Of a stretch of 37,642 nt of DNA, positions 184 to 17,074 are shown piece by piece (positions within the stretch are counted from its first letter, which is position 1; every line of letters begins with the position of its first letter). The notes beneath the pieces are model-generated. The model saw only the letters and a list, made by a program, of their open reading frames with translations, did not search any database and was not told where the DNA came from. Source of the DNA: an uncultured Alphaproteobacteria bacterium (GTDB lineage: Bacteria > Pseudomonadota > Alphaproteobacteria > CAAGCB01 > CAG-977). The stretch is from NCBI GenBank assembly GCA_944392845.1, contig CALXYE010000030.1, positions 1 through 37,642 on the forward strand, in the 5' to 3' direction. A program made the position numbers and the translations under genes.

Positions 184-1590
184 TTAACCGAGCATGCGGC
201 TGCCGATTCCTCCCTTGAATTTAGCCTTCTTTGCCATTTGCTGTAACTTTTTCGCCCGCTTACGCGCCAATTCGGCTTCCTTCATGATGCGGCGCATCGT
301 TTTGATTGCCTTGTCGGATTTGTGGACAAACTGGGCAATACGAGCAAAATACATAATTGAAGCGCATCCTAACGTAAAGATGATCAAAATCAATATAATA
401 ATATCCAAAACCAAATTGATCATCATCGCCAACGCTTCCATACCGACGCTGTCCGGGAAAGACTTGCCCGAGAAATGCGACGCCAGCTTCTCCGCCTTCG
501 GCGGCATCAGGATACCAAAGTAACACACGGCCAACAAAACGAATATTTTAGAGAAATCCGCCCCGCCGGATACGCTGTCAAAAGCATCGACGTAAGCGCC
601 CTCCTGCATTTTTGAAATAAATTCCGGCCCCATATGCGTCATGGCGATCATAATCATTTGGACGCACATATTCATGACAAGAGCCATCACGACAAACAGG
701 ATACACGAATGCAACACGATATAAAACGCCGTTGAAGCATACTGACGGCTTGCGGGGAAAACCCAGGCGACGACCCACATCGGCACCATGCCGACCATCA
801 ACCCTATGCGGAACACGGCATCCATTAAAACCATCGGGAAGATCAGCGAAATGACCCAGAAGAACGCGCCGAGCACGCATCCCAAAGCCCACATCATCGG
901 ATTCGGCAGATATTCCCATAACCAGCTGAACAGCCATGGCATCGTGTACCAGTATCCTGCGCCGCAACGCAAGGATTGCGCCATTTTTTGAGCCTCTCGC
1001 ACCCCGGCACCCAGTCCGCCGACCATGCAACGCATGGATTCGCGCGTTTCATTCGACATCGCCGTTTTTGACGAACCGCCGCTGATAATCGTATCGCCGC
1101 CGCATTCGGTCGTTCCCGTAACCAGCTGATTAGCCAGTTGCGAAGCGTCCGTAATCACGGGATTGATAAAATAATCAAAGGTTATTGCCGCGCCACCCTG
1201 CAAAAAAACCGTTGCGAAAAGAATGCGAAAGGCCATTCCTCCAACCTTGCCTGCAAATTCTCCCAAATCAGGCGCATCGGCCACCGAACTGAAAAACACG
1301 GCGACGTTAAAAGCCAACCAAACCAAGAACATCGCCCACATAAAGGTAACGGCCGGCCCCTCAAGAACGGACGCAACATGTCCCGCCAAGGAATTCGACG
1401 CATCAAAGAACATCATAAAGACTGTACAGGTCCAACATTCGTCATAATCCTTGATTTCATTAAGCATCGGGCATTCTTCAATACGTCCGTGCGTTACCCC
1501 GGCAGCCAGTACCGCAGAAGACACGAATACCCCCCACAGGACGACCAGCCCCGCCAGCAGGTTTTGTTTCGATGTCAAACGACGCATCAT
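184..1590 (-). CDS. TrbL/VirB6-like polytopic membrane protein, paralog A
   Basis: 468-aa ORF with a hydrophobic N-terminal signal/TM and an ECWTC cysteine motif before the first core TM. It has many hydrophobic segments. The block PMVLMDAVFRIGLMVGMVPMWVVAWVFPASR is shared with the two neighbouring ORFs, and the C-terminal tail is Lys/Arg-rich. Coding status is high; the family call comes from remembered VirB6/TrbL architecture only. Confidence 0.65.
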   Translation of the reverse strand: MMRRLTSKQNLLAGLVVLWGVFVSSAVLAAGVTHGRIEECPMLNEIKDYDECWTCTVFMMFFDASNSLAGHVASVLEGPAVTFMWAMFLVWLAFNVAVFFSSVADAPDLGEFAGKVGGMAFRILFATVFLQGGAAITFDYFINPVITDASQLANQLVTGTTECGGDTIISGGSSKTAMSNETRESMRCMVGGLGAGVREAQKMAQSLRCGAGYWYTMPWLFSWLWEYLPNPMMWALGCVLGAFFWVISLIFPMVLMDAVFRIGLMVGMVPMWVVAWVFPASRQYASTAFYIVLHSCILFVVMALVMNMCVQMIMIAMTHMGPEFISKMQEGAYVDAFDSVSGGADFSKIFVLLAVCYFGILMPPKAEKLASHFSGKSFPDSVGMEALAMMINLVLDIIILILIIFTLGCASIMYFARIAQFVHKSDKAIKTMRRIMKEAELARKRAKKLQQMAKKAKFKGGIGSRMLG

Positions 1591-1603
1591 TCTAAAATGC
1601 CTT

Positions 1604-1819
1604 TCATAGCAATGGGGAGTTATCCCCGTTTTTCCTTTTGGCCTTTCGTTTTACACGCAAAGCATAAGCCGTTATTCCCGCCGCCGTCAAAAGTAGTCCT
1701 CCGATCACCCATTCTGCCGCGTTTCCGATCTCCGCCATCCTCTCAAAACCGTCCAAGCGACTTGATGCCGCCAGCCATGCCAACAATCCGAAAACGATAT
1801 AATGCTTGAACAGGGACAT
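1604..1819 (-). CDS. Small two-TM membrane protein with a basic tail (possible VirB2/VirB3-like accessory; unassigned)
   Basis: 71-aa ORF that exactly fills the gap between paralogs A and B (12 nt and 13 nt spacers). It has two hydrophobic helices (YIVFGLLAWLAA, VIGGLLLTAAGITAYAL) followed by RVKRKAKRK. No family motif was recognised. Confidence 0.5.
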   Translation of the reverse strand: MSLFKHYIVFGLLAWLAASSRLDGFERMAEIGNAAEWVIGGLLLTAAGITAYALRVKRKAKRKNGDNSPLL

Positions 1820-1831
1820 TCCCGGTTATCT

Positions 1832-3271
1832 TTAAACCTCCTTTCCGTGCATATTTTTAATTCCTGCGTCCGGCTTATGATCAACAGACCAATCCTTGAA
1901 CCGATCCCCCTTGCCGCCCAAACCGCGGTAAACGGCTCTTGCCGCATCGCGCATGTGCGAATTTTTCAACGTATTTGCATACTTTGCCGTCGTTTTCAGA
2001 TTTCCGTTCTTATCCATTTCCATCATACCGCGATTCATAAGCTTACGTTCCAGCTTGGCGGCTTTCTTAGCCTGCTTTTCGGACTTTACCCCACCGTTCT
2101 GGCGCATTTTTTCATATTTTCTGGCAAGATGTTTATTCCGTCGCTGTTGAAATTGATTCCAACCTATTTTTCCGACGTTTTTCGCAAAAGAGCCTGCATA
2201 TTTCAAAGACTGTCCGCCTGTATTAGAAGAATCCACCGCGCAAAAATTCTTGGTAAAAAGCTGCATAAGCACTTTACCGAACAACAGCAGGAAAAACGCG
2301 ATAAAGATAAAAATGACAATGCCCGGACCGTTAGAAACTTGTTGTGCCGTTTTCGTATCCGTCGCCAAAGCCATTGCATTTTTAACGGTCGGAAACTTGT
2401 GGGCGATAAAAGCCTGCAGGCACCAAACGCATAACGCCGCAAACACGGCCATTGCCGCACCTTGCAGACATACGGCCAAAAAGCTGTTCCATGCTTGTTT
2501 GGTAAGCTTGCGGCTGATCGGAAAGCAAAAAGCGCAAATCCACAGCGGCATCAACGCCATGATGATTGCGAAACGGAAAACGCCGTCCAGCATAAATATC
2601 GGGAACAGGCACCCCAAAACCAAAGAAACGATATAGATTCCCGCGCCGTACATGTTCAGGATGACCGATTCTGTATTACATGTCATCAAAACATAGCCCA
2701 TTTCGCGGCCTTCCGCCAATTTCGTATGGATGGCAGAAATCAGACAAGACATCCCCGTCGCGGGATCCCCCGTGCCGCAGGAAACATTGCCGCCTTCAAT
2801 CGGCAGTTTGCCGACGACCATAATGCCGAAATCAATAAAACCGCTCCAAACGGGAAAGATCAGATCCTGCGTTACCTGATTGATATTCGCGGTCAAAGCG
2901 GCACACATTGCCGCCCAAAATGCCCGAACGGCCAAATCGTTCCAAAAGGAATAAATATCCAGCTCTTTTAAAGAGGCTACCTGACGCATGATGCGCAACG
3001 CCAGCCACAGGCAAAAACCGACCGCAATCACGGTATAAGCGGTCGGCGCCGTTCGGGACTGTATTTCGGTATAAACGTTGGTTGCCGTTTGAAAGAACAG
3101 CTCAAATATCGGACAAGACCAACATTCCTTTGCGTCGGCCTGAATTGATCCGATATCGCATTCCCGCTCTTCGCACGCGGATAAAAAACAAACGGTCAGG
3201 ATAATCATGAAAACGCGCAGAAACATTTTCATGCCCCTCTTTATTTCCACATTATCCCAAACCGTTTTCAT
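1832..3271 (-). CDS. TrbL/VirB6-like polytopic membrane protein, paralog B (possible lipoprotein signal)
   Basis: ORF of about 479 aa. ATG at 3271 has GGAG upstream; alternative ATGs at 3232 and 3226 would give MKMFLRVFMIILTVCFLSAC with the lipobox-like LSAC. It carries an ECWSC motif and the block PIFMLDGVFRFAIIMALMPLWICAFCFPISR, homologous to paralogs A and C, plus a long Lys/Arg-rich C-tail. Confidence 0.65.
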   Translation of the reverse strand: MKTVWDNVEIKRGMKMFLRVFMIILTVCFLSACEERECDIGSIQADAKECWSCPIFELFFQTATNVYTEIQSRTAPTAYTVIAVGFCLWLALRIMRQVASLKELDIYSFWNDLAVRAFWAAMCAALTANINQVTQDLIFPVWSGFIDFGIMVVGKLPIEGGNVSCGTGDPATGMSCLISAIHTKLAEGREMGYVLMTCNTESVILNMYGAGIYIVSLVLGCLFPIFMLDGVFRFAIIMALMPLWICAFCFPISRKLTKQAWNSFLAVCLQGAAMAVFAALCVWCLQAFIAHKFPTVKNAMALATDTKTAQQVSNGPGIVIFIFIAFFLLLFGKVLMQLFTKNFCAVDSSNTGGQSLKYAGSFAKNVGKIGWNQFQQRRNKHLARKYEKMRQNGGVKSEKQAKKAAKLERKLMNRGMMEMDKNGNLKTTAKYANTLKNSHMRDAARAVYRGLGGKGDRFKDWSVDHKPDAGIKNMHGKEV

Positions 3272-3333
3272 CAATAAATCTCCGCGAAATCAGAATGACG
3301 CCGCCCGTCAACCGCTCACCCTTGCCTCCTTAA

Positions 3334-4866
3334 TTATTTTCTGGGAGACCACGCATCATCGGGAACATCCTCGATCATATTACGCTTCTTATCCTCTGCT
3401 CTTTGTAACCGTTCCCTGAACTTAGTGTTGCCTAACCCGACCTTATCCATCGCTTTGCCTAAAGCGCGGTAAGTAACGCGCTTCGCAGCGCGGCGGCGGC
3501 CGTTCGTCAACAGGCCTTCCATACCGTCCTTATAACGCCCCTTGGAATCCATAAAGCCGCGGGAACGCAAATAACGGGCAGCAGCTCTCTCTTTGAAAGT
3601 CGGTTTCGCCGAGGGGTCTTTTTCTCTGGCCTGACGACCTCTTTCAACCGTTCGAGCCGCAGCGCGGTCAACGCCCTGACGAACCTTTCGGGCGCCCGCA
3701 CCCGCCAATTCGCCGCCGGCCTTAGCCGTATTGCCGACGGTCTGACCCGCATACTGAGTAGCCTGCCAAGCCGTATTATTTTCAAAGCTCGTCTCCGCAA
3801 AGAAGTTCGCCAACTGTCCCGCCTGTAACGTAAACAGAATTGCATAAAACACGCACACGAACGCAACAATCAAATTGTTTCCTTCTATGATCGCGTCCAT
3901 AAACGCGCGTTCTTTACCGTCCCCGACTAAATCATCGCGCATGCCGGAAGCGCCCAAAATAAGCTCGACGTCCAGATCCAATATAATTTTCAGACAGATG
4001 AACAAAAACGCCACGTTTAAAACGGATTGGAAACCTTTTTTAGCAAATTCGACCGTAATCGGGAAAACCCACGCTACGATAAACAACGGGCAAAGCGCCG
4101 CCGTTACGCCCAATCGGAACATAGCGTCAAATAAAAAGAACGGGAAAACCAGCAATAATATCCAACAACCGATGTAAACGATACACCCCGACGCCATTAC
4201 CTCGAATTCGGGATAGCCGTCGCGCACCCCTTCTTTTTCCAGCAGGTCTTCAAAAGGCCACGGCAGGCGTTCCCATTGAGAAAGACAGATAGCATAATCC
4301 CCGACGCCAATACCGTAAGTGATCGTATCGTGCATGTCCTGCATCAACTCTTCCAACGGAGAAACCACGGATTGCAATCCGCCGCCCGCGCCAGCATCGA
4401 TTCCGACGAATCCCGCCGCCGTTGCCGTAATCGGCGATACGAACGTTCCGAAAAAGAAGCTGGAATTGATAAGCATGCAATAGGCAAACCCCGTTTTGAA
4501 CATCATGCCGCCGACCTTCGTCAGCATTTCCATCGGATCAACTTCTTTTAAGGAAGACAGGTTCTTCATCATAAAGATGACCAACCATAACAAAAATCCG
4601 ACGGTCATCAGCTTGACGGCGTCGGGAGCCACGGTGTTAAAAGTCGTTTCGCCGACGGTGATCGTCGCTTCGGAAACGACGCGGAAAGGTTCTTTCCACC
4701 AGGTAAACGATTTCGCGGCTCCGGCATAAACGTCCAAGTCATTTTCGCACTGCGTATTGAACTGGTCCTCCGCCCGTACTTCCGGAACGAACGCCCCGCA
4801 AACAAAAACCGCTGCAAAAAGCGCCAACAAAACACGTGCCAAGATTTTCTTTTTGGATCTTATCAT
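3334..4866 (-). CDS. TrbL/VirB6-like polytopic membrane protein, paralog C
   Basis: 510-aa ORF with a signal-like N-terminus (LLALFAAVFVCGAFVPEVRA). LWLVIFMMKNLSSLKEVDPMEMLTKVGGMMFK aligns with paralog B (LWLALRIMRQVASLKELD) and with paralog A (KVGGMAFR). The block PFFLFDAMFRLGVTAALCPLFIVAWVFPITV is shared, and the Arg/Lys-rich C-tail is over 100 aa. Confidence 0.65.
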   Translation of the reverse strand: MIRSKKKILARVLLALFAAVFVCGAFVPEVRAEDQFNTQCENDLDVYAGAAKSFTWWKEPFRVVSEATITVGETTFNTVAPDAVKLMTVGFLLWLVIFMMKNLSSLKEVDPMEMLTKVGGMMFKTGFAYCMLINSSFFFGTFVSPITATAAGFVGIDAGAGGGLQSVVSPLEELMQDMHDTITYGIGVGDYAICLSQWERLPWPFEDLLEKEGVRDGYPEFEVMASGCIVYIGCWILLLVFPFFLFDAMFRLGVTAALCPLFIVAWVFPITVEFAKKGFQSVLNVAFLFICLKIILDLDVELILGASGMRDDLVGDGKERAFMDAIIEGNNLIVAFVCVFYAILFTLQAGQLANFFAETSFENNTAWQATQYAGQTVGNTAKAGGELAGAGARKVRQGVDRAAARTVERGRQAREKDPSAKPTFKERAAARYLRSRGFMDSKGRYKDGMEGLLTNGRRRAAKRVTYRALGKAMDKVGLGNTKFRERLQRAEDKKRNMIEDVPDDAWSPRK

Positions 4867-4933
4867 GTTACAACCCTTTCCGCAGCTCTCCGAAACGGCT
4901 CCGGCCGCCCGCTCCTTAAACAGGACTCTACCA

Positions 4934-4961
4934 TTCTTACAATATAATACAAAAAGCCGCC
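4934..4961 (-). promoter_or_regulatory. Conserved promoter block, copy A (drives the leftward VirB6-like operon)
   Basis: On the minus strand it reads GGCGGCTTTTTGTATTATATTGTAAGAA, nearly identical to the block at 5059-5087 on the plus strand. It contains the -10-like TATATT; its -35 is poor. Confidence 0.45.
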
Positions 4962-5052
4962 TTTGATTGTGACACTTTTTTGATTTTTTGACAACACCGG
5001 CACTTCATGTCGAATACATTGAAAAACCGTAAAAATTCCTGTAAAAAGTTTT

Positions 5053-5087
5053 TTGACAGGCGGCTTTCCTTTATTATATTCTAAGAA
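5053..5087 (+). promoter_or_regulatory. Sigma70-like promoter plus conserved block, copy B (drives the 5120 operon)
   Basis: TTGACA (5053-5058), 16-nt spacer, TATATT (5075-5080). The block GGCGGCTTTCCTTTATTATATTCTAAGAA mirrors copy A. Confidence 0.55.
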
Positions 5088-5119
5088 GTCAAAGCAATTA
5101 CTCGGAATCATAGCGCATT

Positions 5120-6271
5120 ATGGAAAAACGACCGCTTTCATCCGTATCGCCCGCGCCCAAAGGCCCCGTTCTTGTCAAAAGGATCAAGATCGTAAAGCGC
5201 CCCGTCGCTCCGGCGGCGACTCCTGTGCCGCCTCAGCCAGCGCCGCAACAAAAAACCGTTCTGGTCAAAGTTCCCGTCAAAAGAATTAAGGTTCCCGTAA
5301 AGCGCCCCGTTCCCCCTGCGGCGGCTCCCGTACAGCCTCCCGTTCCCCCCGCGCCCTCTCAGACTGCGGCTCCGTCCGTACAACCTCCCGAAATGAAGAT
5401 TGCCGCCGCCGTCCAAAGCCGTCCGCAACCCGTGATTACGGGAAAAACGGCTTCTCCGATGCAACGGGCGCACAGAATCCGCTCGTCCGAAGCCGATGAC
5501 CCCGTAAAATACGTTCTGCCCTCCAATCCTTTGGATAAAATCACTTCGCACGAAAGCGCGCGCGAACGCTTTTTCCTGTTTTACGTCTACGTCCGCCTGT
5601 ATGCGGAAGAATTGCTGGACGAAGAGGAGTTCCTGTCCCTGCCGCCGATGGCTTTTGAACTGCCGCAAACAAAAAGAGAGTTGAGAATATTCAAAAATCA
5701 GCTCCGTTCCGAAGCAAAGGAAGGGATGATGGACGACATTTTGGACGATCTGACGACGATTCTGCCTTTGATCCCTGAAATGCAGCGCATCTTAAACACC
5801 GACGCCCCTTTGGACGATCTGATTGAGGAAGAAATCGCGTATATGGAAGATTCCGAAGATTCTTCCGTCGGCGAACAGCTTGTCGTTTCCTACCTGCTGG
5901 TCATGGCAGACATGGAAATCATGATGAGGAAGGCACAAAGCCGCCGCATGCGCGAAGAACGGGAAAATCTGATCGAAGAAATCCAAGATAACGAAAACGA
6001 AGAGTTAGAAATCCAAAAAGCGTTCGTCAATGCGCTGAAAAAGGAAAATTTCCCCGTAGATGCGGAAAAGCTGATTAAAAACTATTTCAATTTCGCCCGT
6101 AAGGAACCGGAAAAGGCTTATCAGTTACTGACGACGAATCCGCTGTTTTTCGCCCCCGTTCAAACGGAAAAGCTGCCCAAAAAGTTTTTCGGACTGGTCA
6201 AAGCGGGGCCGAAGGAAGCTTCCGCCGTTAATAAGCGGCTCGCTTCTTTCCTGAAAAAGGTTAAAATTTAA
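5120..6271 (+). CDS. Hypothetical protein with a Pro-rich tandem-repeat N-terminus and an acidic helical C-terminal domain
   Basis: 383-aa ORF. The N-terminal 100 aa are Pro/Ala/Val/Lys-rich, with VKRIK..VKRPV..PP repeated twice. No TM segment and no recognised domain. Confidence 0.7.
   Translation: MEKRPLSSVSPAPKGPVLVKRIKIVKRPVAPAATPVPPQPAPQQKTVLVKVPVKRIKVPVKRPVPPAAAPVQPPVPPAPSQTAAPSVQPPEMKIAAAVQSRPQPVITGKTASPMQRAHRIRSSEADDPVKYVLPSNPLDKITSHESARERFFLFYVYVRLYAEELLDEEEFLSLPPMAFELPQTKRELRIFKNQLRSEAKEGMMDDILDDLTTILPLIPEMQRILNTDAPLDDLIEEEIAYMEDSEDSSVGEQLVVSYLLVMADMEIMMRKAQSRRMREERENLIEEIQDNENEELEIQKAFVNALKKENFPVDAEKLIKNYFNFARKEPEKAYQLLTTNPLFFAPVQTEKLPKKFFGLVKAGPKEASAVNKRLASFLKKVKI
5174..5356 (+). 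repeat. Imperfect tandem duplication (period about 102 nt) encoding the VKRIK-x-VKRPV-Pro-rich unit
   Basis: gtcaaaaggatcaag..gtaaagcgccccgtc at 5174 recurs as gtcaaaagaattaag..gtaaagcgccccgtt at 5276. Confidence 0.7.
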
Positions 6272-6308
6272 AGGCTGTTACGCCTTGTGTGACTCTTTTG
6301 TTACGAAC

Positions 6309-6337
6309 TGGACAAAAAACCTTTTCTTTTGTATAAT
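6309..6337 (+). promoter_or_regulatory. Sigma70-like promoter with extended -10
   Basis: TGGACA (6309-6314), 17-nt spacer ending in TG, TATAAT (6332-6337). It lies 39 nt upstream of ATG 6376, which has a GGAGAA RBS. Confidence 0.6.
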
Positions 6338-6375
6338 CAAAGAAAAAGGCTGAGATTTACGGACGGAGAAAAGCC

Positions 6376-7860
6376 ATGGCTGATTCGCAAGACGCCCCCA
6401 ACGTTGAAATTTCGCAGAATGTCCCCGAAAATACGATCTCGAACGGCGCGGAAAGAGCGTCCGGGGAACAAAACGCTTCCGACCTCGAAAACACCATAGA
6501 AAACGGCGCCGACAAGGAAGGCACTTTTGAGGGTGAAGCGGAAAACGACGGCCGCGACGGAGAAAGGGATAAAAAACCGTTTTATCTTAGAATCCGCGAA
6601 GCGGACGACGCCGCCAATTTCTTTTGCAAACTTCTGGCGGATTCTCCGTTGTTGACCATCGGTAACATCGAGCCGTTGTTCCAACGTCTGTCGGCTCCCG
6701 TCAGATTTGCCCGCGATATGTATGCCGCCCGCAAAGAATATAAAAAAGAATTGAGGGAACACGATCATCAACGTCGCATGGACGCGGCCGAAAAATTCAA
6801 AAACAACGATCCTTCCGACAATCAGGTTATCAGCGACAAAGACGGAATAAAAGTTACGGAAATCGGCAATACGGGTACGATGAAATTCGGCAAGGACGGC
6901 CGGGGCAAAATAAGCACGCTTGAAAAAATGTACGCCGTGGAGCGTACGGGAGCCGACGGCAAAACAACGACGGAATTCCTGAACAAAAAAGAAGTGGAAA
7001 AACAACTGGGCATAAAGGTTCCTCCGGTTCGCGCGACCGATGCCGAAAAACAAGAATATAAAGACCGCTATTCTTTAACGGACCGTCAGGCAAGAAGACT
7101 GAACAAACGTTATAAAGATACGGATGCGAACTTGGCGCGCAAACGGGCGGAAAAGGACAAAGCGAAGGAAGAACGCCCGCAACAGGCCGAAAAGAACAAG
7201 GAACCCGCGTCCAAAAACAACAAAAAAGAAGAAAAGGCCAAGGATCAAAAGGGCAAAGACGAAAAGAAAAAAGCCCCGAAAAAACGCGCTTCAAAGGAAC
7301 AAAATCCCGAAATGAAGAAGCTGATCCGCGAGCAAAAAAGAATCGAAAAACAGATCACCGAAGCGGAAAAGAAAACGCCGAACTTCGATAAAACGCCCGA
7401 GGGTAAAAAGCTGTATAACAAACTGTTTCTGAATGACGTCAAACAGCAACAGGTCGCGGTGGAAGACAAAATTACCAAAGCGGAAAAACAAAATCCGAAT
7501 TATGACAAGACGAAAGAAGGTAAAGCCGACTATAAAAAGTTGTTTGATCTGGAAAAACAGGCCAATACTCTCAACCGCCCTCCGAAGGAAAGCAAAAGCA
7601 AGGGGTTGAGCCTGCAATCCGCTCCGAAACAGATCAGCAATAAAAAAGCGTCGTCAAAGAAGGCAACGTCAAAGGCTCGAAACATCAAGACGAAAGAAGA
7701 CGCAAACAACCGTTCCGTCAAAAGCCTGCAAAACAGCGCCTCGCGTCTGAAAAGCGTGGCGAAGCAAACAAACCGCTCCGCTTCGAAGCAAAGAACGTCG
7801 ACACGGACGAGCGGCAGGACTCCGTTTACGGGCGGACGCAACGCGAATACGGGGCGATAA
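6376..7860 (+). CDS. Hypothetical Lys/Glu-rich, largely low-complexity protein with an internal 39-aa repeat and a Ser/Thr/Arg-rich C-terminus
   Basis: 494-aa ORF with an acidic N-terminus, a long KE-rich middle and the C-terminus ...NRSASKQRTSTRTSGRTPFTGGRNANTGR. No TM segment and no recognised domain. Confidence 0.7.
   Translation: MADSQDAPNVEISQNVPENTISNGAERASGEQNASDLENTIENGADKEGTFEGEAENDGRDGERDKKPFYLRIREADDAANFFCKLLADSPLLTIGNIEPLFQRLSAPVRFARDMYAARKEYKKELREHDHQRRMDAAEKFKNNDPSDNQVISDKDGIKVTEIGNTGTMKFGKDGRGKISTLEKMYAVERTGADGKTTTEFLNKKEVEKQLGIKVPPVRATDAEKQEYKDRYSLTDRQARRLNKRYKDTDANLARKRAEKDKAKEERPQQAEKNKEPASKNNKKEEKAKDQKGKDEKKKAPKKRASKEQNPEMKKLIREQKRIEKQITEAEKKTPNFDKTPEGKKLYNKLFLNDVKQQQVAVEDKITKAEKQNPNYDKTKEGKADYKKLFDLEKQANTLNRPPKESKSKGLSLQSAPKQISNKKASSKKATSKARNIKTKEDANNRSVKSLQNSASRLKSVAKQTNRSASKQRTSTRTSGRTPFTGGRNANTGR
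7354..7560 (+). repeat. In-frame tandem repeat (period 117 nt)
   Basis: ITEAEKKTPNFDKTPEGKKLYNKLF (from 7354) is repeated as ITKAEKQNPNYDKTKEGKADYKKLF (from 7471). Confidence 0.7.
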
Positions 7861-7877
7861 CCGCGCCGCTTACGGCA

Positions 7878-7909
7878 CAAAGGGGAAGAAATTTCTTCCC
7901 CTTTGTTTT
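7878..7909 (+). terminator. Rho-independent terminator after the Lys/Glu-rich gene
   Basis: Near-perfect hairpin CAAAGGGGAAGAA-at-TTCTTCCCCTTTG followed by TTTT. Confidence 0.8.
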
Positions 7910-8291
7910 ATCCGCCCCGCCACCGCGAAAAGAGAGATTTTCCGAATATCCCGTTTCACCTCCTTTAAATCGACGCTTTTCCCGTTTTTCGATCCGTCCG
8001 AAAATGCCGAAGCGCATCTTCGCCGACATCTTATCGGCTTAAAAGACGGCGGACGTCTTAAAACTTAAACCGACACAAACGCCGTTGCGGGTGAAAACGC
8101 CGCCGCGAAAATGCCGGCTTTAAACGACTCTCTTCCCTTATGACCAAATGCGCCTCCGATAAAAAATATCGGTTAATTTCCCGTTTCCATGCGACGGTTC
8201 TTTTTTTCGGAAAAAATCCGTTTTTTTTGGCATCTTCTTGAAATTTGGTATACTCTGTTTGATATGTCCGTAAAATGATAGGAATTTTCGC

Positions 8292-9449
8292 GTGAAAAAA
8301 AGGAAGCTGTCTTTTTTCGTTCTTCTTTTATCCGGCCTTTTCAGCGCAGCGGTCTGTTTCTTTTTATTCAAAGCTTATTTCCATGCGGGATGGCGCTTCG
8401 ACATTATGAAAGTGAGCCATTGGCAATATCTGGCGGACAAATGGAATTCCGGATGGGTCATGAGCACGCCGAAAGAAATGATGTTCTTTGCCGGCTTTGT
8501 CGCAATCATTCCCGTCTGGCTGACGACGTGGGTTCTGTGCTACATCATGCCGTGGAAGGGAATACTGCTGTTTCCTTTAACTCTGCTGAAAAAACGCAAA
8601 GCGGAAAAGTTGTTGCAAAAATCGATTGAAGCAGCCAAAGGTCCCGAAAACATACAGGCCGCCCTGGCGGCAAAGAAAGCGGCGCCGAAGGAAACCGCGC
8701 ACAAAGCGCCGAAAATATCTTCGGACAAAATGACAAAGATTGACAAGCTGAGAGGGCGAACCTCTCATGCGCATTCCGCCGCGCCGCAACCGGTACAAAC
8801 GGCGGGTACGTTTGAAGAACCCGTTCAAACGCAGCATCAGCCCGTTTCGCCGACGGCCCTACCCTCCGCCGAAACGCCGCAAACGGCGGCGGCGTCCGAT
8901 CAAAAGTCCCGCACGTTGCAAGTTTGGGATGATTTGGCGGCTCTGATGGAAAAAAGCGGTATTTTCATTTTTCGCGAAATGAAAATCGGAGCCTACGAAA
9001 CAAACATCATTGCCGTAACGAACGAAAACGTTTTCCTGCTCTCCGAAGGGCCGAAGCTCGGCTCGAACTGGACGGTCTGCGAAAACGACACGCCGCCCGT
9101 GTGGAAGGACGGCAAAGACGCTTTGGCTTCGCCCCTCCGCCCTTTGCTTGACGCGCGAAACAAGCTTAAAGAGCATCTTGACGCGGAGTTTCCTCAATAT
9201 TCATCTTTAGTCGTCAACGCCTGTTTGGTTTTGGATCACGGCAACGTTACGAATACAAAAGCCTTAATCGAAAAATTGGAAGAATGGGATATGTCGGTAT
9301 TGCGAACGGGAACGTGCAAAACGACAGATCTGCCCGAGGTCGGGGCTTTGCTTTCTTACATCCGTACACAGGCTCAGGCGACGCAGGAGGTCAGCGACGC
9401 AATCGCGGACACGCTTCTGTTTTTGATGGAGACGGGCAGTGATTTCTAA
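8292..9449 (+). CDS. Membrane-anchored NERD-like protein, paralog 1
   Basis: 385-aa ORF with a GTG start. The N-terminal TM is followed by the conserved WRFDIMKVSHWQYLADKWNSGWVMSTPKE block and a second TM region, then a Pro/Ala/Lys linker. The C-terminal part (IFIFREMKIGAYETNIIAVTNENVFLLSEGPK..W..SPLRPLLDARNKLKEHL) resembles the NERD pattern. Confidence 0.6.
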   Translation: MKKRKLSFFVLLLSGLFSAAVCFFLFKAYFHAGWRFDIMKVSHWQYLADKWNSGWVMSTPKEMMFFAGFVAIIPVWLTTWVLCYIMPWKGILLFPLTLLKKRKAEKLLQKSIEAAKGPENIQAALAAKKAAPKETAHKAPKISSDKMTKIDKLRGRTSHAHSAAPQPVQTAGTFEEPVQTQHQPVSPTALPSAETPQTAAASDQKSRTLQVWDDLAALMEKSGIFIFREMKIGAYETNIIAVTNENVFLLSEGPKLGSNWTVCENDTPPVWKDGKDALASPLRPLLDARNKLKEHLDAEFPQYSSLVVNACLVLDHGNVTNTKALIEKLEEWDMSVLRTGTCKTTDLPEVGALLSYIRTQAQATQEVSDAIADTLLFLMETGSDF

Positions 9450-10497
9450 ATTTTTCGCGGCCATCGCCCGCCTGTTCACCATTGCCTGCATCTGGACTCC
9501 CGGCTATGTGTTTTGGTTCCGCCGCTTAACGGTCGGTCTGTGGGGTTTTGACATCCTGGCAAAATCCCATTGGAACTATATTTGGGATCAGTGGCAACAG
9601 GGATGGGTTATCCAAAGCCCCCGCGAATGGTGTTTTGTCATCGCGTTATGCATGTTCGTCCCCTTATGGTTCATCGGATGGACGATTTTATGTTCCATCT
9701 CATGGATGTCTTGGTTCAAGGCTATCCTCCTGTTCCCGATCAAGCTGCTGAAAAGTATAAGAAAAAGATCGACCAAAAGCGGCGCAAAACCGAAAGTCAC
9801 CCGTCGGAAATCCTATAAACAAACACGTCCGCCCGCCGTACGCGCCGGTTCGGGAAAGATCAAACCCTTGGATAAAGCGCCGGAAGAAGAAGCTAAGCAT
9901 GCTTCGAAAAAACATGCTCACGCGAAAAAGCACGAAGAAAACATCTCTCCGTCGCCCGAACCGAAACGCGAAGCAAGACCTTCGTCCGCGCCGACGGGCG
10001 CCGTATCTTCGGGCGGCAGTATTGCCGACATTCTTTCCAAGGCGGGTTATCGCCTTATTTCGAATGCCAAAGCGGGGGGCAAACCTGTTGATTTTATCGG
10101 CGTTGCGGACGACCGTTTGCTTTTATGCCTGGTCGATTCCGAACCCGGCGACTGGCTGGCTGACGAAGAACGTTTCAATGACGAAGAACCGCTGTGGTTT
10201 TCCGAAAGCAATCACAGGATATCCCCCGTTCGCGTCATTTTGAACGCGCGCGACGCTCTGATGCCGAAACTTTCGGGGCGCGCAAGAGGCCTTGACGTCA
10301 GGACGATGGTCATTGTCAAACAGGGAACCATCATCAACGCCGAAGACATGTTCGAGGTTTGGGAAGGCCTGCGCGTTTCCGTCTGCCGTTATCAAGACGG
10401 CGGCCCGTCCGAAATCAAACCTTTGAACGAAGTCGTCGAACGCGTCAATGCTCCCGACGATGATCTGTTCCGCGACGTTTCTTCGGCATTGGGATAA
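9439..10497 (+). CDS. Membrane-anchored NERD-like protein, paralog 2
   Basis: 352-aa ORF with a GTG start that overlaps the previous stop by 11 nt. It has the same N-terminal block (WGFDILAKSHWNYIWDQWQQGWVIQSPRE), a basic linker, and the C-terminus VDFIGVADDRLLLCLVDSEPGDW..W..SPVRVILNARDALMPKL. Confidence 0.6.
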   Translation: MISKFFAAIARLFTIACIWTPGYVFWFRRLTVGLWGFDILAKSHWNYIWDQWQQGWVIQSPREWCFVIALCMFVPLWFIGWTILCSISWMSWFKAILLFPIKLLKSIRKRSTKSGAKPKVTRRKSYKQTRPPAVRAGSGKIKPLDKAPEEEAKHASKKHAHAKKHEENISPSPEPKREARPSSAPTGAVSSGGSIADILSKAGYRLISNAKAGGKPVDFIGVADDRLLLCLVDSEPGDWLADEERFNDEEPLWFSESNHRISPVRVILNARDALMPKLSGRARGLDVRTMVIVKQGTIINAEDMFEVWEGLRVSVCRYQDGGPSEIKPLNEVVERVNAPDDDLFRDVSSALG

Positions 10498-10550
10498 TCT
10501 TTTCTTTACTTTTAGGGCGCATCCTGAATTAAAACGAAAAGGGGAAAAAA

Positions 10551-11504
10551 GTGCGCCGATTTGATAAAGCGTCCTTAATAAAAAAAATATTGAAAGACGT
10601 CTTGCGCCTGACGTTGCGTTTGGCCGGGATCGGAGCGGAATGCCTGATTGCCTTTTTCTTTAAAGTCTTTATTCCGTTTTTTATCGGCTCAATTGCCTGT
10701 TTCGCGCTAACCTGCATCCTGTTGAACGGAATCGGAACGGAAGCAATCGAAACGGCAACGACATTCGCGAAAGAAACCCTTTCTTCGCCGTTGTCCCTGC
10801 TTCCGCTGTACGCCCAATGGTACGACGACGTTTTTGAAAACGGTTTCCGGACATCTTCCCGATATTTTCTGTCCCAAGTCCTGCCCGCCGTCCCGCTTTT
10901 TTACGCGGCGTTCGGCATAATCGGCATGCTTCTGCTCCGTCCCGCGGCTTCGCATTCGCGCGAAGGGCGGCGGGCGCGGTTGGATTTCATTGACGAACTG
11001 TTCCATCATATAAAAGAACAAAAACGCGGTTTTTCCGATGAAGAATTCTTTACCCGCCGCGAAGAAGCGCCGGAGTTGGAACGGGACGCCTTTGAAGAGG
11101 AATTTTTCGGCGAAGACGAAAACGAAGACGTTTCGGCGGCTTTAAAGGTACTGTACATCAGCGACGACGTTAAAATATTCGGCAAGGAAAGCCTGTACGA
11201 CGAATGGGCGGACAAGACGCGTCTGGCCGTCGTATTTTGCACGCCGAAGGAAGCCAACGGCTTTTTCCTTCAGGCCTTTTACGCAAGCCGCCTGAAAAAT
11301 CGGGACTGCCGCGCCTTAAAAGGTTTTTTCCGCGACCTGAAAGATGCGGACGCCGCGGAAGAAGTAAAAAAAATACGGGCGGGAGTTTTTGATTCTTCGC
11401 GTTACGACAAAATTACCTTCTGGGAAAGGCCGCCCCTTTCCTGGCGCAAGGCAAAGGTCATGTTCTGCATGATTCCCAAACTTTGGGAATCAAAGGAAAA
11501 ATAG
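10551..11504 (+). CDS. Hypothetical membrane protein with an acidic cytoplasmic domain
   Basis: 317-aa ORF with a GTG start preceded by AAAGGGGA. It has hydrophobic segments in the first 130 aa, then a Glu/Asp/Phe-rich region. No recognised domain. Confidence 0.6.
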   Translation: MRRFDKASLIKKILKDVLRLTLRLAGIGAECLIAFFFKVFIPFFIGSIACFALTCILLNGIGTEAIETATTFAKETLSSPLSLLPLYAQWYDDVFENGFRTSSRYFLSQVLPAVPLFYAAFGIIGMLLLRPAASHSREGRRARLDFIDELFHHIKEQKRGFSDEEFFTRREEAPELERDAFEEEFFGEDENEDVSAALKVLYISDDVKIFGKESLYDEWADKTRLAVVFCTPKEANGFFLQAFYASRLKNRDCRALKGFFRDLKDADAAEEVKKIRAGVFDSSRYDKITFWERPPLSWRKAKVMFCMIPKLWESKEK

Positions 11505-11513
11505 GGAAAATAT

Positions 11514-11542
11514 TTGGATTTTCATCGGATTGCTTTTATACT
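11514..11542 (+). promoter_or_regulatory. Sigma70-like promoter upstream of the coupling-protein gene
   Basis: TTGGAT (11514-11519), 17-nt spacer, TATACT (11537-11542). Confidence 0.5.
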
Positions 11543-11585
11543 AAAAAGGTATATCTTTTTTTGAAGTCAGGGAGCTGTTTGAAGA

Positions 11586-13916
11586 ATGGCAAAACGCGGT
11601 GATGAATGGGCAGAAAGAGATGCCGCAGTAAACTGGTGTATCGCAACGGTCGCCATTTCCTGCGCGGCATTTTTTGTATTGGCAATCGCCAGCTTTGCGC
11701 TTTCTTACCTGATCGGAAAAGGCATCAGCCAGGAAACTCTGGGCATCGTATGGAAATTCCTGAAACGGCTGGCGCTTGATCCGATGTACTTGGGACAAAC
11801 ATATTGGAGGTGGCTCAAGCAGTTCTATGCTTTGGGCGGAGCCTTCAGCATACCGATGTGGTTGCCGACGGTGCCGTTCTTTGCCTTTTTCGTCATTTTG
11901 GTAACGGGTCTGATCATGAACCCGCACGAATGGATATCCCAAATCCACGGCAGCGGACGCATTGCCACTTATGCCGACATTAAAAAAATGGGGTTGTTCG
12001 ACGGCTTTATCATCGTTTTGGGACGCTGGAAGGGTAAGCTGTTACGCCTGCCCGAAACGCTGTCCGTGCTGGTGCTGGCGCCTCCCGGAACGGGTAAGAC
12101 GGTCGGCGTCGTTATGCCGACGATTTTCGAATCCAACAACATCAGCATCATCGTCAACGACCCGAAACCCGAATTGTGTTTTAAAACAAGCGGTTACCGT
12201 CAAACCATCGGTCCCGTGTTCGTCATCAACTGGGGCGCCGAAGACGAACCTGACAAGGGTATTTATTATCCCAGCTGGAACCCCTTGTCCGCAACGTGTT
12301 TGCCGCCGATGGGGCCCGCGCGCGACATGTACGTCGACAGTATGGTGACCGTGCTGGTCGAAGAACCGAAAGGCGGCGCGGATCCGCACTGGGCCAAAAC
12401 GGGCCGAAACGCCCTGACGGGCTTCATCCATTTCGTCGTCGGAAAGTGCGAACGCGCCCGCGCGAACGATTACTTTATCGGAAAGCTGTATGAAGGGGCA
12501 CTGGACGACAAAGACCGCGAAGTCCTTGAAGGCTATTATTTGGACATGACGGACGCCGATGCGGCGGGCGCTTTGGAAAATCTGCGCAACGGCACGTTGA
12601 CTTTGGAAAACTACGTCCCCATCGGAACGTGGGAAATGTTGCCCGAATCCTGGGTCGGCGGAGAACCCTGCATCGCCATGATTCTGGACTGGCTGACCGA
12701 AGCGCAGATGCAAATGGCGGCGGACATCAAACGCCGTACCGAAGAAGGCGACCAGATGGCCGCCCTGGCCGATCCGATGCGCGACATGCTGGATCAAGCG
12801 GTCGCCGAATGTAAAAAGTACGGGTACGCTCACCGCGCCGTCGTCGAATTGAACCAGTTGTCGGGAACGCCCGATAAGGAACGCGGTTCTATTTTATCGA
12901 CGGCATTAACGGGTATCGGTATTTTCAAAAACTCGGCCGTGCGCGCCAGAACAAAAATGAGCGATTTCATCTTTCGCGATTTGCGCGGCATGAAGGATCC
13001 GATCACGGGCGAAATGAAATCAATTGCCGTCTATCTGTCGGTGAACCAGGTTGACGCCCGCGCGTTGAACATCATCACGGGAACGTTCGTCGAGCTGATG
13101 TCGAACTTCCTGATCGCGAATCCGCCCAACTTCCCGCAAGCGGACGGCGGCAAAACGGGGCCGTTCCCGACGCTGTTCGTCCTCGACGAATTTCCGCAAA
13201 TGCCGAAACTGGGCGCCGTTAAGGACGGCCCTGCGGTCGGACGCGGCCAAAAAGTGTCATACCTGCTGATCGGGCAAGACTTGGGCCAAATTTCGGGACA
13301 ATACGGCAAGGACGATCTGGAAACCATCATTTCCACAACGGCGGCGAAAATCGTTTTGTCGCAAAACAACGAACAAACGGCTCAACGTTTCGAAAAGATG
13401 ATCGGTACAAGAACGGTTGAAATCGCTTCTTCCTCCCGTACGGAAGGTTGGTCGAAACAGGCGACGCCGTTCTCTAAAAACGTATCCCGTTCGTTGCAGG
13501 GAACCGCCGTTATCGGCGCTTCGCAAATGCTCAGCCTGCCTTCGACGAAACAAATCGTTTTGATGCAAGGTTACATGAACCGCCCGATTATGGCTGATGC
13601 GCCGCGTTGGTTCTTGGATAAGGAAATGACGAAGAAATGTCAGATTCCCGCTTCGCCGAACGTGCCGTACTGGGTTGTCGCCCAACGCGAAGATTCGGAC
13701 GTCAGCGCGTTGCAGGGATTGATCGACATCGCCGACGAAGAAACGGACGAAATCGAAGACGAACTTGATGAAATGGAAGACGAAGAATACGACATTGAGG
13801 ATATCGACGACGAAGATGAAGATTACGACGATGACGATGAAGACGAGGATGAAGACGAAGAGTATGACGACGAAGATTACGAAGACTTCATTGAAGACGA
13901 ATATGACGGCAAATAA
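11586..13916 (+). CDS. virD4: Type IV secretion coupling protein (VirD4/TraG family ATPase) with a poly-acidic C-terminal tail
   Basis: 776 aa with two N-terminal TM segments. Family motifs are HGSGRIATYADIKKMGL; Walker A LAPPGTGKT (GTGKT at 12087-12101) followed by VNDPKPEL; Walker B-like LFVLDEFPQMPKL; and LLIGQDLGQISGQYG. The last 63 aa are almost entirely Asp/Glu/Tyr. Confidence 0.9.
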   Translation: MAKRGDEWAERDAAVNWCIATVAISCAAFFVLAIASFALSYLIGKGISQETLGIVWKFLKRLALDPMYLGQTYWRWLKQFYALGGAFSIPMWLPTVPFFAFFVILVTGLIMNPHEWISQIHGSGRIATYADIKKMGLFDGFIIVLGRWKGKLLRLPETLSVLVLAPPGTGKTVGVVMPTIFESNNISIIVNDPKPELCFKTSGYRQTIGPVFVINWGAEDEPDKGIYYPSWNPLSATCLPPMGPARDMYVDSMVTVLVEEPKGGADPHWAKTGRNALTGFIHFVVGKCERARANDYFIGKLYEGALDDKDREVLEGYYLDMTDADAAGALENLRNGTLTLENYVPIGTWEMLPESWVGGEPCIAMILDWLTEAQMQMAADIKRRTEEGDQMAALADPMRDMLDQAVAECKKYGYAHRAVVELNQLSGTPDKERGSILSTALTGIGIFKNSAVRARTKMSDFIFRDLRGMKDPITGEMKSIAVYLSVNQVDARALNIITGTFVELMSNFLIANPPNFPQADGGKTGPFPTLFVLDEFPQMPKLGAVKDGPAVGRGQKVSYLLIGQDLGQISGQYGKDDLETIISTTAAKIVLSQNNEQTAQRFEKMIGTRTVEIASSSRTEGWSKQATPFSKNVSRSLQGTAVIGASQMLSLPSTKQIVLMQGYMNRPIMADAPRWFLDKEMTKKCQIPASPNVPYWVVAQREDSDVSALQGLIDIADEETDEIEDELDEMEDEEYDIEDIDDEDEDYDDDDEDEDEDEEYDDEDYEDFIEDEYDGK

Positions 13917-13961
13917 CGGAGCGACGGTTTAAGAAAACGGCATTAACAGGAACGGTGCATC

Positions 13962-15014
13962 ATGTGGGACTGGTCGGGTTCCAAAATCCCGCCTCCGAAG
14001 CGTTCGCGCGAGGAGGCCGCCGCGGAAGCGCAGAATCAGGGAGTCACTCCCGTGCGCCGTGACGTTCGCGTCGTACCTATTTACAGGGATCCCCGTTCCT
14101 TCAGAACCCTGCCGCCGACGGCGCCCGCTTCCGCTTATCCCGATCCTTTGGATATGTCGCAGCCCGTTTATCCCAACGTGCCGATGCAACCGCCCCGTCC
14201 GAACTATCCGCCTCAGCCGCCGATGCCGCAGGCCTATCCTTATCCGCAACCGCAGCCCTACCCCGCCGCGCCCGCAGGAATGACGTCGTGGGGCAACATC
14301 CCGCCGCCGCAACCCGCATACATGCCTCAGCCGTATCAGCCTTATCCGCCGATGCCGCCGCAACCCGCTCCGTACCTTCAGCCGCAAATGCCCGGGCAAC
14401 CCGAAACAATGCCGACGATGTCGGCCTACCAGCCGAATGCCGCCGCCGCCATGCCTGCGGAAGAAACGGGCGACCGTTCCATGTGGGAATGGCAAATGTC
14501 GCAGATGGAACTCCCCAACATGGACCTGATTGAAGCGAACTACATCATGTTGGATCCCCGCTGGCGGCTGGAATTGCGCAAAGCGTTCAAGCGCGCGCGC
14601 CGCGATTTCCTGAAATACGTCGGATACCACCATGTCAACGAACTGATGGCGGCGGGACTTTTAGAGGAAGACATCGCGAAAATCAAAAAAGGCAAGGCTC
14701 CCGAAAACTTTAACGTCCATGTCCGCATTCCCTTTGATTACGGCGGTACGAACGACTTTTCAAATCTTGTCCTGATACAAACGCATCCCTTCCACGTTAA
14801 TATTCACAAATTGCTGGACATGCAGATTCTCAGCCGGCCGCAGGGCATGAAGCCCCGCCGCCTGTTCATCCCCGCGCCGAAGGGAAAAGTCTATTTCCCC
14901 GGCGTCATTGAAGTGTCATCGGGCGGAAAAGACAAGCACGACAGGAGCGTTTACGCCGGTTTCCTGGAAAGCACTTTTGAAATTATCGCTCAAAAATCTT
15001 CTTTAGGACGGTAA
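13962..15014 (+). CDS. Putative HNH-nuclease toxin/effector with a Pro/Gln-rich N-terminal region
   Basis: 350 aa. Residues about 45-165 are P/Q/Y/M-rich low complexity. The C-terminal NVHVRIPFDYGGTNDFSNLVLIQTHPFHVNIH (14718-14807) fits the HNH pattern His..GG..N-L..H-x3-H. Confidence 0.65.
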   Translation: MWDWSGSKIPPPKRSREEAAAEAQNQGVTPVRRDVRVVPIYRDPRSFRTLPPTAPASAYPDPLDMSQPVYPNVPMQPPRPNYPPQPPMPQAYPYPQPQPYPAAPAGMTSWGNIPPPQPAYMPQPYQPYPPMPPQPAPYLQPQMPGQPETMPTMSAYQPNAAAAMPAEETGDRSMWEWQMSQMELPNMDLIEANYIMLDPRWRLELRKAFKRARRDFLKYVGYHHVNELMAAGLLEEDIAKIKKGKAPENFNVHVRIPFDYGGTNDFSNLVLIQTHPFHVNIHKLLDMQILSRPQGMKPRRLFIPAPKGKVYFPGVIEVSSGGKDKHDRSVYAGFLESTFEIIAQKSSLGR

Positions 15015-15017
15015 CGA

Positions 15018-15461
15018 ATGCCCGAAATGCTGAAACGGATTTTGGAAACCTTGAAAAAAGACGACGGCGTCTTTTTTCCGCCCGTTGACGACCGTTCTTT
15101 GCGCTTTGTCGCCTCCATGCTCTCCAGCCACCATTTCCCGATGATCCCCAAAGATTACATCGAGCTCTTAAAACAAACGGACGGTTTGGTGTGGAACGGC
15201 ATTGAGCTTTACGGGACGCGCGCAAACGACAGGGAAACGATGGGATACACTCTGCCGGGGCTGATCGAAGCCAATCTGGAATACGCAAACGTACCGCAAA
15301 TGCGCGGCAAACTGTTGCTGGGGCGCGCATCGGAAGAATTATTCGTTTACGATACGACGGACCAGAAATACCACATCCTCGATCGTTTGGACTTTCAGGT
15401 CAGCTGCAGTTTTCCGACGTTTTCGGAGGCCGTATACCTGTTCGTTGACGAGCTGTTTTAG
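15018..15461 (+). CDS. SUKH/SMI1-KNR4-like putative immunity protein
   Basis: 147 aa, starting 3 nt after the HNH gene stop. FPMIPKDYIELLKQTDGLVWNGIELYGT matches the remembered SMI1/KNR4 (SUKH-1) core (LP.dY.efl...nG...g.el.g). Confidence 0.6.
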   Translation: MPEMLKRILETLKKDDGVFFPPVDDRSLRFVASMLSSHHFPMIPKDYIELLKQTDGLVWNGIELYGTRANDRETMGYTLPGLIEANLEYANVPQMRGKLLLGRASEELFVYDTTDQKYHILDRLDFQVSCSFPTFSEAVYLFVDELF

Positions 15462-17044: not shown

Positions 17045-17074
17045 ATCTTTCCCCTTTGCGAACTTTGATCAAAT

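Follow-up and report, generated by a model that had tools for sequence, protein, structure and literature searches.

Two probable islets of a dispersed, chromosomal VirB/D4-type secretion system in uncultured gut Alphaproteobacteria

The VirB/D4-type (P-type) type IV secretion system (T4SS) is known in a chromosomal, vertically inherited form from the rvh system of Rickettsiales, whose islets lie amid housekeeping genes (PMC2653234, PMC11077975). The rvh system is regarded as a signature of the order Rickettsiales, and its hallmarks are multicopy VirB6, duplicated VirB8, VirB9 and VirB4, and no VirB5 analogue (PMC11077975). A VirB/D4 operon of a more compact kind is found on the Erythrobacter aureus plasmid NZ_CP031358, whereas the X-T4SS of Xanthomonadales serves for the delivery of antibacterial toxins. 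Here we analyze a stretch of 37,642 nucleotides from an uncultured Alphaproteobacteria bacterium (GenBank assembly GCA_944392845.1, contig CALXYE010000030.1; hereafter the window), in which the region 184-15461 encodes three VirB6-like proteins and a VirD4 coupling ATPase. We consider it quite probable that the window holds two islets of one chromosomal, vertically inherited, dispersed VirB/D4-type T4SS of gut Alphaproteobacteria. Rather than a new minimal machine, it represents an unusual, dispersed variant of a known one. No paper on a T4SS in this gut clade (searched as RF32, CAG-239, CAG:977, Scatocola and Azospirillum sp. 51_20) was found in the literature.

The VirB6 triplet and the VirD4 coupling protein

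The features of the two islets are the following, with lengths and positions in amino acids (aa), transmembrane segments abbreviated as TM, and the supporting evidence in brackets.

135-162, minus strand: intrinsic terminator closing the VirB6 operon (11-bp stem with 6 G-C pairs, then a T run)
184-1590, minus strand: third gene (copy 3) of the VirB6-like paralogues, 468 aa, basic C-terminal tail (common invariant motifs, positional orthologue in distant relatives)
1604-1819, minus strand: small 71-aa protein with two hydrophobic segments, between VirB6 copies 2 and 3 (called in independent assemblies)
1832-3274, minus strand: second gene (copy 2) of the VirB6-like paralogues, 480 aa, net charge +21 (paralogue alignment, positional orthology across lineages)
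3334-4866, minus strand: first gene (copy 1) of the VirB6-like paralogues, 510 aa (Pfam TrbL, AlphaFold2 model match to TrwI/VirB6)
4867-5119, no strand: divergent intergenic control region between the VirB6 operon and the VirD4 side (promoter-like sites on both strands)
5120-6271, plus strand: D, cytoplasmic, Pro/Lys-rich N-terminus and conserved C-terminal domain of ~250 aa (conserved upstream of VirD4)
6376-7860, plus strand: E, Lys-rich and fast-evolving (composition, position in relatives)
8292-9449, plus strand: F, membrane-anchored and NERD-like, divergent paralogue of G (paralogy with G)
9439-10497, plus strand: G, membrane-anchored, with a PD-(D/E)xK (NERD-like) nuclease-fold domain (model, homologues, conservation)
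10551-11504, plus strand: H, truncated VirD4 paralogue with the TM domain and a fragment of the all-alpha domain (collinear alignment with VirD4)
11586-13916, plus strand: VirD4 type IV coupling ATPase with a long acidic C-terminal tail (Pfam and NCBIfam matches, Walker motifs, orthologues in gut genomes)
13962-15014, plus strand: J, Pro-rich N-terminal region and C-terminal HNH nuclease domain (invariant residues, PDB match, architecture of relatives)
15018-15461, plus strand: K, SUKH-like candidate immunity protein for J (weak SUKH matches, position after J)

The three leftward genes are mutual homologues (20-28% identity) with six predicted TM segments each and with invariant FP..D..FR / P...A..FP motifs common to all. 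Pfam TrbL (PF04610) is matched marginally by copy 1 (E 6.9e-6, 26.4 bits against a cut-off of 25.9) and not by copies 2 and 3 on their own, and the same family is found in 22 of the 30 database homologues of copy 1. A profile built from the three sequences has R388 TrwI/VirB6 as its best PDB match, weak at E 0.22. The AlphaFold2 model of copy 1, built on the homologues of this copy and of moderate confidence (predicted local distance difference test, pLDDT, 66.8; predicted template modelling score, pTM, 0.53), finds TrwI/VirB6 chains in all of its top 7 PDB fold matches, with E 2e-4, probability 1.0 and a TM-score of 0.54-0.60 on the target. Sequence evidence alone is thin, and it is with the model that we accept the paralogues as having the VirB6 fold and homology. 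The initial annotation of this DNA, made without database searches, had read the three genes as tandem paralogues of TrbL/VirB6-like topology, and this relationship to TrbL/VirB6 is what the PF04610 matches of the homologues and the fold matches of the model recover.

When compared with distant relatives, each copy matches its positional counterpart with 250-790 bits and the other two copies with 45-120 bits, hence the triplication is old, with each copy kept separately. The small protein between copies 2 and 3 is conserved as a 71-88-aa protein with a basic tail, the 88-aa counterpart being found in a distant relative (L084 13232-13498; numbers with L denote loci of relatives), and it could be a small T4SS subunit, for example a candidate VirB3-like one. 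Promoter-like sites, which are consensus matches only, lie in the intergenic region at 5053-5080 on the plus strand (11 of 12 positions) and at 4994-4966 on the minus strand. At the other end of the operon, the previously proposed terminator was found on the minus strand.

The VirD4 assignment, already considered clear-cut, is fully sustained by the Pfam scores, which are far above the cut-offs: T4SS-DNA_transf with E 1.1e-57 (196.4 bits vs 20.1) and TraG-D_C with E 1.5e-20 (73.8 bits vs 22), to which TrwB_AAD_bind with E 3e-17 is added, matching an all-alpha insert. Walker A is located at aa 168 (GTGKT) and Walker B at aa 530 (LFVLDE); two TM helices are predicted at the N-terminus (aa 19-37 and 93-111), and the acidic tail comprises ~70 residues, with a net charge of -49. 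A pattern scan shows this Walker A to be the sole credible one of 184-15461, the two other matches being in VirB6 copy 3, in its C-terminal part, and in an antisense open reading frame (ORF) at 6726. PADLOC gives a weak match of VirD4 to mads_8 and no other match. Among sequenced plasmids the nearest VirD4 is that of Erythrobacter aureus (NZ_CP031358), with 33% identity at 90% coverage.

H is a paralogue of VirD4, not an orphan, as judged from two collinear alignments: H aa 43-131, the TM region, with VirD4 29-113 (E 4e-6), and H aa 230-308 with VirD4 288-366 in the all-alpha domain (E 1e-12). It has neither the Walker A motif nor the ATPase domain, and it is confined to the nearer relatives of the window. 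Low-complexity drift was considered as the cause of the H profile recruiting every VirD4, and was ruled out by the direct collinear alignment.

The other ORFs of 184-15461 have no match to VirB4, VirB8-11, relaxase or pilin in Pfam or NCBIfam, in agreement with the initial annotation, and further T4SS genes are absent from the window and from the 10 kb flanking it at each end.

The VirB7-VirB11 islet of relatives and the conservation of the locus

Further T4SS parts were searched for with the proteins of the Erythrobacter aureus VirB/D4 operon as queries and then with a metagenome scan for the gut-clade VirB9, the sampling covering ~60-90 kb around the islets of each genome. In two sister species (L009, L015), two VirB8 genes and a VirB9 gene lie a few kb upstream of F-G-VirD4, and a solo VirB8 is present in L014, which also has the three VirB6 genes and VirD4; Pfam confirms both results. 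The VirB9 scan yielded 19 loci with an islet VirB8-VirB8-VirB9-VirB10-VirB11 amid housekeeping genes. Among these relatives, every complete islet contains two VirB8 genes and each islet one VirB9, and a 64-aa lipoprotein with an LNAC lipobox, located between both VirB8 genes (L118 103-297), is a candidate VirB7. The best PDB matches of the gut-clade VirB8 are Brucella VirB8 and pKM101 TraE. VirB10 is giant, with 2,200-2,470 aa (L088 11470-18138; L118 2597-9988; L122-L131), and intact in many assemblies; it consists of an N-terminal TM helix, ~1,800 aa of repeats (Bflower, Bflower_2, DUF3659 and RHS-like, GxxVDxxGNxIG) and then a normal TrbI domain.

Two assemblies carry this islet on the same contig as a window-type layout, at a distance of about 30 kb from the VirB6 triplet and VirD4. 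In ERZ27270411 k99_305823 the VirB6x3/VirD4 part is found at 20-42 kb and VirB8-B11 at 75-96 kb, and in DJRZ01000004.1 (GCA_002440235.1) housekeeping genes lie between the two parts. The locus tags of metagenome-assembled genome (MAG) DD624 are _07730 for VirD4 and _07790 for VirB11. VirB11 is >90% identical across seven loci, all of them in one cluster of 152 members, and one VirB11 variant, which comes from very abundant species other than that of the window, occurs in 489 blocks of the contig collection. The Erythrobacter VirB2, B3, B4, B5 and MobA queries gave nothing in the fetched loci (E <= 10; E <= 1e-3 in the islet loci), and when DJRZ01000004.1 was walked between and beyond the islets for VirB4, only housekeeping genes were seen. 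The suggestion that the remainder of the T4SS lies elsewhere in the genome is thus borne out by the relatives' islet, whereas the term accessory or effector module, proposed with it, says too little, VirD4 and VirB6 being core components.

Orthologues of VirD4 with 62-94% identity are present in many MAGs from human, horse, ruminant, rabbit and chicken gut, which bear the names Alphaproteobacteria bacterium, uncultured Rhodospirillaceae, Azospirillum sp. 51_20, Acetobacter sp. CAG:977 or Candidatus Scatocola and are placed by NCBI in or near Rhodospirillales; the order is presumably the one named RF32 in GTDB. In species-representative genomes 368 stretches with relatives were found, 80 loci were fetched, their VirD4 being 63-95% identical, and neighbourhoods were counted over 83 loci. 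VirD4 is a chromosomal gene retained in at least 80 species, and around it a G-VirD4-J-K core is conserved. This core comprises one or two F/G genes, VirD4, J and K, and ahead of it there is often D, together with a fast-evolving Lys-rich gene at the position of E. The G family, the most conserved partner, adjoins VirD4 in 81 of the 83 loci, J is present in 61, K follows J in 59, and D precedes VirD4 in 45. The core of many species is directly flanked by genes for a pseudouridine synthase, a 2-hydroxyacid dehydrogenase, a Na/H exchanger and an ABC-F protein, hence the locus is regarded as chromosomal and vertically inherited, not mobile. Its G+C is the same as that of the flanks.

The layout of the window recurs in the independent assemblies L001-L003 and L107, so the arrangement is real. 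A VirB6 triplet placed divergently to the VirD4 operon is restricted to the nearer relatives, with 16 loci as well as L084/L115 and L107-L112, and in L013 and L086 the VirB6 and VirD4 blocks are differently arranged. On the triplet side of L086, where the window has VirD4, a 1,148-aa LPD1/LPD3 protein is encoded (3119-6565); these domains are typical of polyvalent proteins of conjugative elements.

Partners of VirD4, the J/K pair and flanking genes

The genes between the VirB6 operon and VirD4 had been described as ORFans of extreme composition or membrane-anchored. The compositional part of this description stands (D Pro-rich, E Lys-rich, F and G TM NERD-like, H TM-acidic), and the ORFan label fails for H. 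In Pfam, NCBIfam and PADLOC, D, E, F, G, H and J have no informative match. For D, moreover, no PDB relative was found, and its family profile gave nothing credible in PDB; it is a candidate adaptor or substrate. E, with 16% Lys and a net charge of +34, is probably disordered, and in relatives its position is occupied by an unalignable gene of similar composition.

F and G (25% identity, E 8e-33) are built alike, each from a pair of TM helices, a linker that is basic and disordered, and a C-terminal domain. Judging from the basic stretch that follows TM2, this domain would lie in the cytoplasm, beside VirD4. NERD (PF08378) is matched by some G homologues, one of which is named NERD domain protein by NCBI, and in the AlphaFold2 model of G (pLDDT 80.6) the C-terminal domain resembles NucS/EndoMS, AF1548 and Nt.BspD6I, with E 6e-3 and weaker. 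D218, D233 and E235 are nearly invariant among G orthologues and not retained in F. Nuclease activity of G is uncertain because the canonical (D/E)xK lysine is absent. As a speculation, the strongly acidic tail of VirD4 might dock electrostatically on the very basic partners, i.e. E (+34), VirB6 copy 2 (+21) and the F/G linkers. A defence system, in which NERD and HNH domains also occur, was considered and rejected, since no defence family was recovered by PADLOC and the association with T4SS genes is conserved.

Downstream of VirD4, the HNH/SUKH-like pair that had been proposed is recovered, J with the invariant residues of an HNH motif and K as weakly SUKH-like. In J, H253, N268, H278 and H282 are invariant in 49 sequences, and the best PDB sequence match of the motif is the HNH motif of the pyocin AP41 DNase. 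A search of 1.84 billion representative proteins gave 513 relatives; in those scanned, the J domain forms the very C-terminal end of longer proteins whose N-termini are PT-HINT, eCIS-core or Mu-portal-like, architectures that are typical of polymorphic toxins, and Pfam HNH is matched, mostly below its cut-off. The N-terminus of J has a conserved MWDWS start and a Pro-rich linker, with no known trafficking domain. K starts 3 bases downstream of J. Relatives of J that are C-terminal toxin modules, together with a SUKH-like gene after J, constitute the signature of a toxin-immunity pair, and from its sequence J is a candidate effector, an HNH nuclease of the polymorphic-toxin type.

Concerning the flanks, a conserved block follows the VirB6 operon to the left of position 1 (seen in L001 11615-20042), and then Fe-S assembly and RNase J genes. 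The block encodes a 330-aa regulator with a double helix-turn-helix (HTH) of XRE type; a 1,379-aa hyper-acidic protein with a net charge of -265 and YYLDEEGNPVYYDP-type repeats; a 321-aa protein with a basic Pro-rich tail resembling the N-terminus of D; a 287-aa protein, rich in Pro, that has one TM segment; and a 424-aa lipoprotein. The four proteins after the regulator have no known-family match, and a secretin assignment of the lipoprotein, made by eye from its C-terminal VVMMTPRIIRL, is unsupported by Pfam or PDB sequence search. Because this regulator, the proteins of no known family and the housekeeping genes lie to the left, the window is not the tail of a conjugative operon; as first supposed, the machinery does not continue there, no canonical virB/tra operon or relaxase being found left of position 1. 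In L109 (16657-19254), of the CAG:977 lineage, the giant acidic repeat gene is broken by a 747-aa gene on the opposite strand, maybe an insertion.

To the right, one further feature adjoins the VirD4 side:

15458-17044, minus strand: two DUF1189 membrane proteins, convergent with the VirD4 operon (Pfam E 8.6e-7 and 1.4e-19)

The association with the DUF1189 pair is kept in the nearer relatives (16 loci and L084/L115). A low-G+C patch at 17000-19300 (34-40% vs ~50% around) contains a Fic/DOC protein with a C-terminal MerR-type HTH (17976-18914, minus strand) and is probably a recent insertion. A MacB-type ABC efflux operon at 27137-31575 (minus strand), with an FtsX/MacB permease, an ABC ATPase, an HlyD-family adaptor and a TolC-like OEP, adjoins CreD and is ordinary housekeeping. 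Right of the window end, L113 1-9700 shows a small integrative element with a resolvase, two phage-type integrases, DUF927, DUF3768 and AAA_14/DUF4143, and without T4SS genes.

Explanations for the locus and comparison with known systems

In the preferred reading, islet 1 (184-4866), with three ancient VirB6 paralogues of distinct roles, would most likely form the inner-membrane channel base, possibly as a mixed oligomer, as judged from the R388 structure and general T4SS knowledge. Islet 2 (5120-15461) would provide VirD4 as substrate receptor and ATPase, with its clade-specific partners H, F, G, D and E; VirD4 would dock at the VirB6 base and pass substrates on, with H and the membrane-anchored F and G alongside. 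A third islet elsewhere would encode the periplasmic and outer-membrane core and VirB11, in the order VirB8, VirB7-like lipoprotein, VirB8, VirB9, giant VirB10 and VirB11. As for the substrate, the likeliest role deduced from gene content, to which we give an even chance, is that J is a DNase effector recruited by VirD4 and injected by the machine into neighbouring bacteria, with K protecting the producer.

Several observations weigh against this picture. VirB4, VirB2, VirB3, VirB5 and VirB1 were found in no fetched locus, so the machine is not demonstrated to be complete, although the absence of VirB4, VirB2 and VirB3 is weak evidence, given the limited sampling around the islets. The VirB7-B11 islet was demonstrated directly in relatives, from which that of the window genome itself is presumed, and in the closest islet-bearing case VirD4 is 81% and VirB6 34% identical to those of the window. 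The roles of J and K are predicted from gene content. J matches no Pfam family at E <= 0.1, hence no XVIPCD, a domain with a model in Pfam; this counts against toxin delivery. The SUKH assignment of K is weak, Pfam SUKH_5 being matched with E 0.035 (14.3 bits vs a cut-off of 27) and the family profile having a single PDB match with E 0.08, Lin2918 (2icg), a SUKH-fold protein. Finally, J and K are kept in sequence and in position next to virD4 across ~60 species, and toxin-immunity pairs normally vary.

This last property would also fit a DNA-handling T4SS, dedicated to release, uptake or unusual transfer, in which G and J would process DNA instead of a relaxase and K would regulate J: both genes are conserved like machine parts, VirD4 is encoded together with the PD-(D/E)xK-fold G, with its conserved acidic triad, and with the HNH nuclease J, and a relaxase is nowhere seen in the window, its flanks or the fetched loci. 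However, the nearest relatives of J are C-terminal toxin modules, a SUKH-like gene comes after it, G lacks the canonical lysine, and we know of no T4SS in which an HNH or NERD nuclease replaces the HUH-type relaxase; we regard this alternative as unlikely. Rather unlikely too, in our view, is a T4SS directed at the host or at protists, which would deliver the fast-evolving D and E and the 1,379-aa acidic repeat protein and leave J and K a side role. Such a function is suggested by the rvh-like architecture of dispersed islets with paralogue expansion (PMC2653234), by the animal guts in which the clade lives, and by several neighbouring proteins that are large, repetitive and extreme in composition; nevertheless, no eukaryote-like domain was found in the candidate proteins, the sole neighbour with a recognisable effector-type domain is a nuclease of antibacterial type, and the best structural matches of VirB8 are from Brucella and pKM101, not from Rickettsia.

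The initial annotation had also entertained a reduced translocation system based on VirD4 and VirB6 alone, without VirB4 and VirB8-11. The window and its 10-kb surroundings, with no other T4SS gene, and the lack of VirB4 in every fetched locus would fit, but relatives with the same layout have VirB7-B11 on the same contig, and the high identity of VirB11 across the seven loci argues for a working machine under selection. Because the relatives carry the VirB7-B11 islet, the VirD4/VirB6-only interpretation is refuted for the clade, and by extension for the window genome, where we hold it to be very improbable. Hardly credible at all is the view that the locus is what remains of an integrated conjugative element in decay: the local sequence indeed lacks relaxase, pilin and VirB4, and an integrase-bearing mobile element is found immediately to the right of the window, yet every ORF is intact, the core persists between housekeeping genes in at least 80 species, each VirB6 copy has its positional orthologues in other lineages, and the G+C is that of the chromosome.

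A dispersed, vertically inherited VirB/D4-type T4SS remains our preferred explanation, and it would have several consequences. A design like that of rvh, if shared by a second alphaproteobacterial lineage, would mean that the architecture is older or has evolved repeatedly, and the gut clade, which is not an obligate intracellular parasite, offers a comparison group for rvh. These bacteria are widespread and uncultured in human and animal gut, and contact-dependent DNase delivery, if true, bears on their competition. Three features might represent new T4SS biology: the giant VirB10, the truncated copy of VirD4 and the NERD-like proteins that accompany VirD4. For annotation in this clade, the lack of nearby VirB4 or VirB8-11 genes should not be taken to imply a reduced system.

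Concerning the proposed toxin delivery, the locus would resemble the X-T4SS in that VirD4 would recruit an antibacterial toxin encoded with an immunity protein, as in the X-Tfe/X-Tfi pairs (PMC6536674, PMC8740702). X-Tfe have a C-terminal XVIPCD that is recognised by VirD4, whereas the C-terminus of J is the HNH domain itself; the VirB7 candidate has only 64 aa, the genes are scattered here and form one cluster there, and that system has no equivalent of the NERD-like partners or of the truncated VirD4 copy. Polymorphic toxin systems with HNH and SUKH proteins share with the locus the C-terminal HNH domain, the architectures of the relatives of J and the small SUKH-like gene next to it, and differ in that J has no known N-terminal trafficking domain and the pair is fixed next to virD4.

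The resemblance to rvh extends to the multicopy VirB6 (three copies here), the duplicated VirB8 (here in the relatives' islets) and the degenerate duplicates, represented here by the ATPase-less VirD4 copy and the divergent NERD copy; rvh lacks a VirB5 analogue, and here the Erythrobacter VirB5-like query found none around the sampled islets. The differences concern the clade, which here consists of gut Alphaproteobacteria in or near Rhodospirillales; VirB6, with five larger copies there and three of 470-550 aa here; VirB9 and VirB4, both duplicated there, against one VirB9 per islet and no VirB4 in the fetched loci here; and the gigantic VirB10 with its repeats of the beta-flower, DUF3659 and RHS-like types. 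Neither the VirD4 plasmid matches nor the VirB8 PDB matches revealed any sequence affinity to Rickettsia proteins. A bolder formulation, that the clade evolved an rvh-like archipelago T4SS independently of Rickettsiales, its new parts being the nuclease-fold membrane partners of VirD4, the VirD4 paralogue devoid of an ATPase domain and the VirB10 of >2,200 aa with beta-flower repeats, in its extreme form without VirB4, VirB2 and VirB3 and with VirD4 and VirB11 alone, appears to us quite improbable.

The closest plasmid VirD4 belongs to the Erythrobacter aureus operon, whose queries readily find the gut-clade VirB8, B9, B10 and B11. That operon is compact and comprises MobA/MobL, VirB2, B3, B4, a VirB5-like protein, a 453-aa hypothetical protein at the VirB6 position, B8, B9, B10, B11 and D4; the gut clade differs in having no nearby relaxase, dispersed islets, paralogue expansion and a chromosomal location. 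The nearest plasmid VirD4 being part of a complete operon, the comparison suggests descent from a canonical VirB/D4 system, which we count in support of the preferred explanation. The resemblance to rvh may be convergent, and the sequence hints point to the plasmid-type VirB systems.

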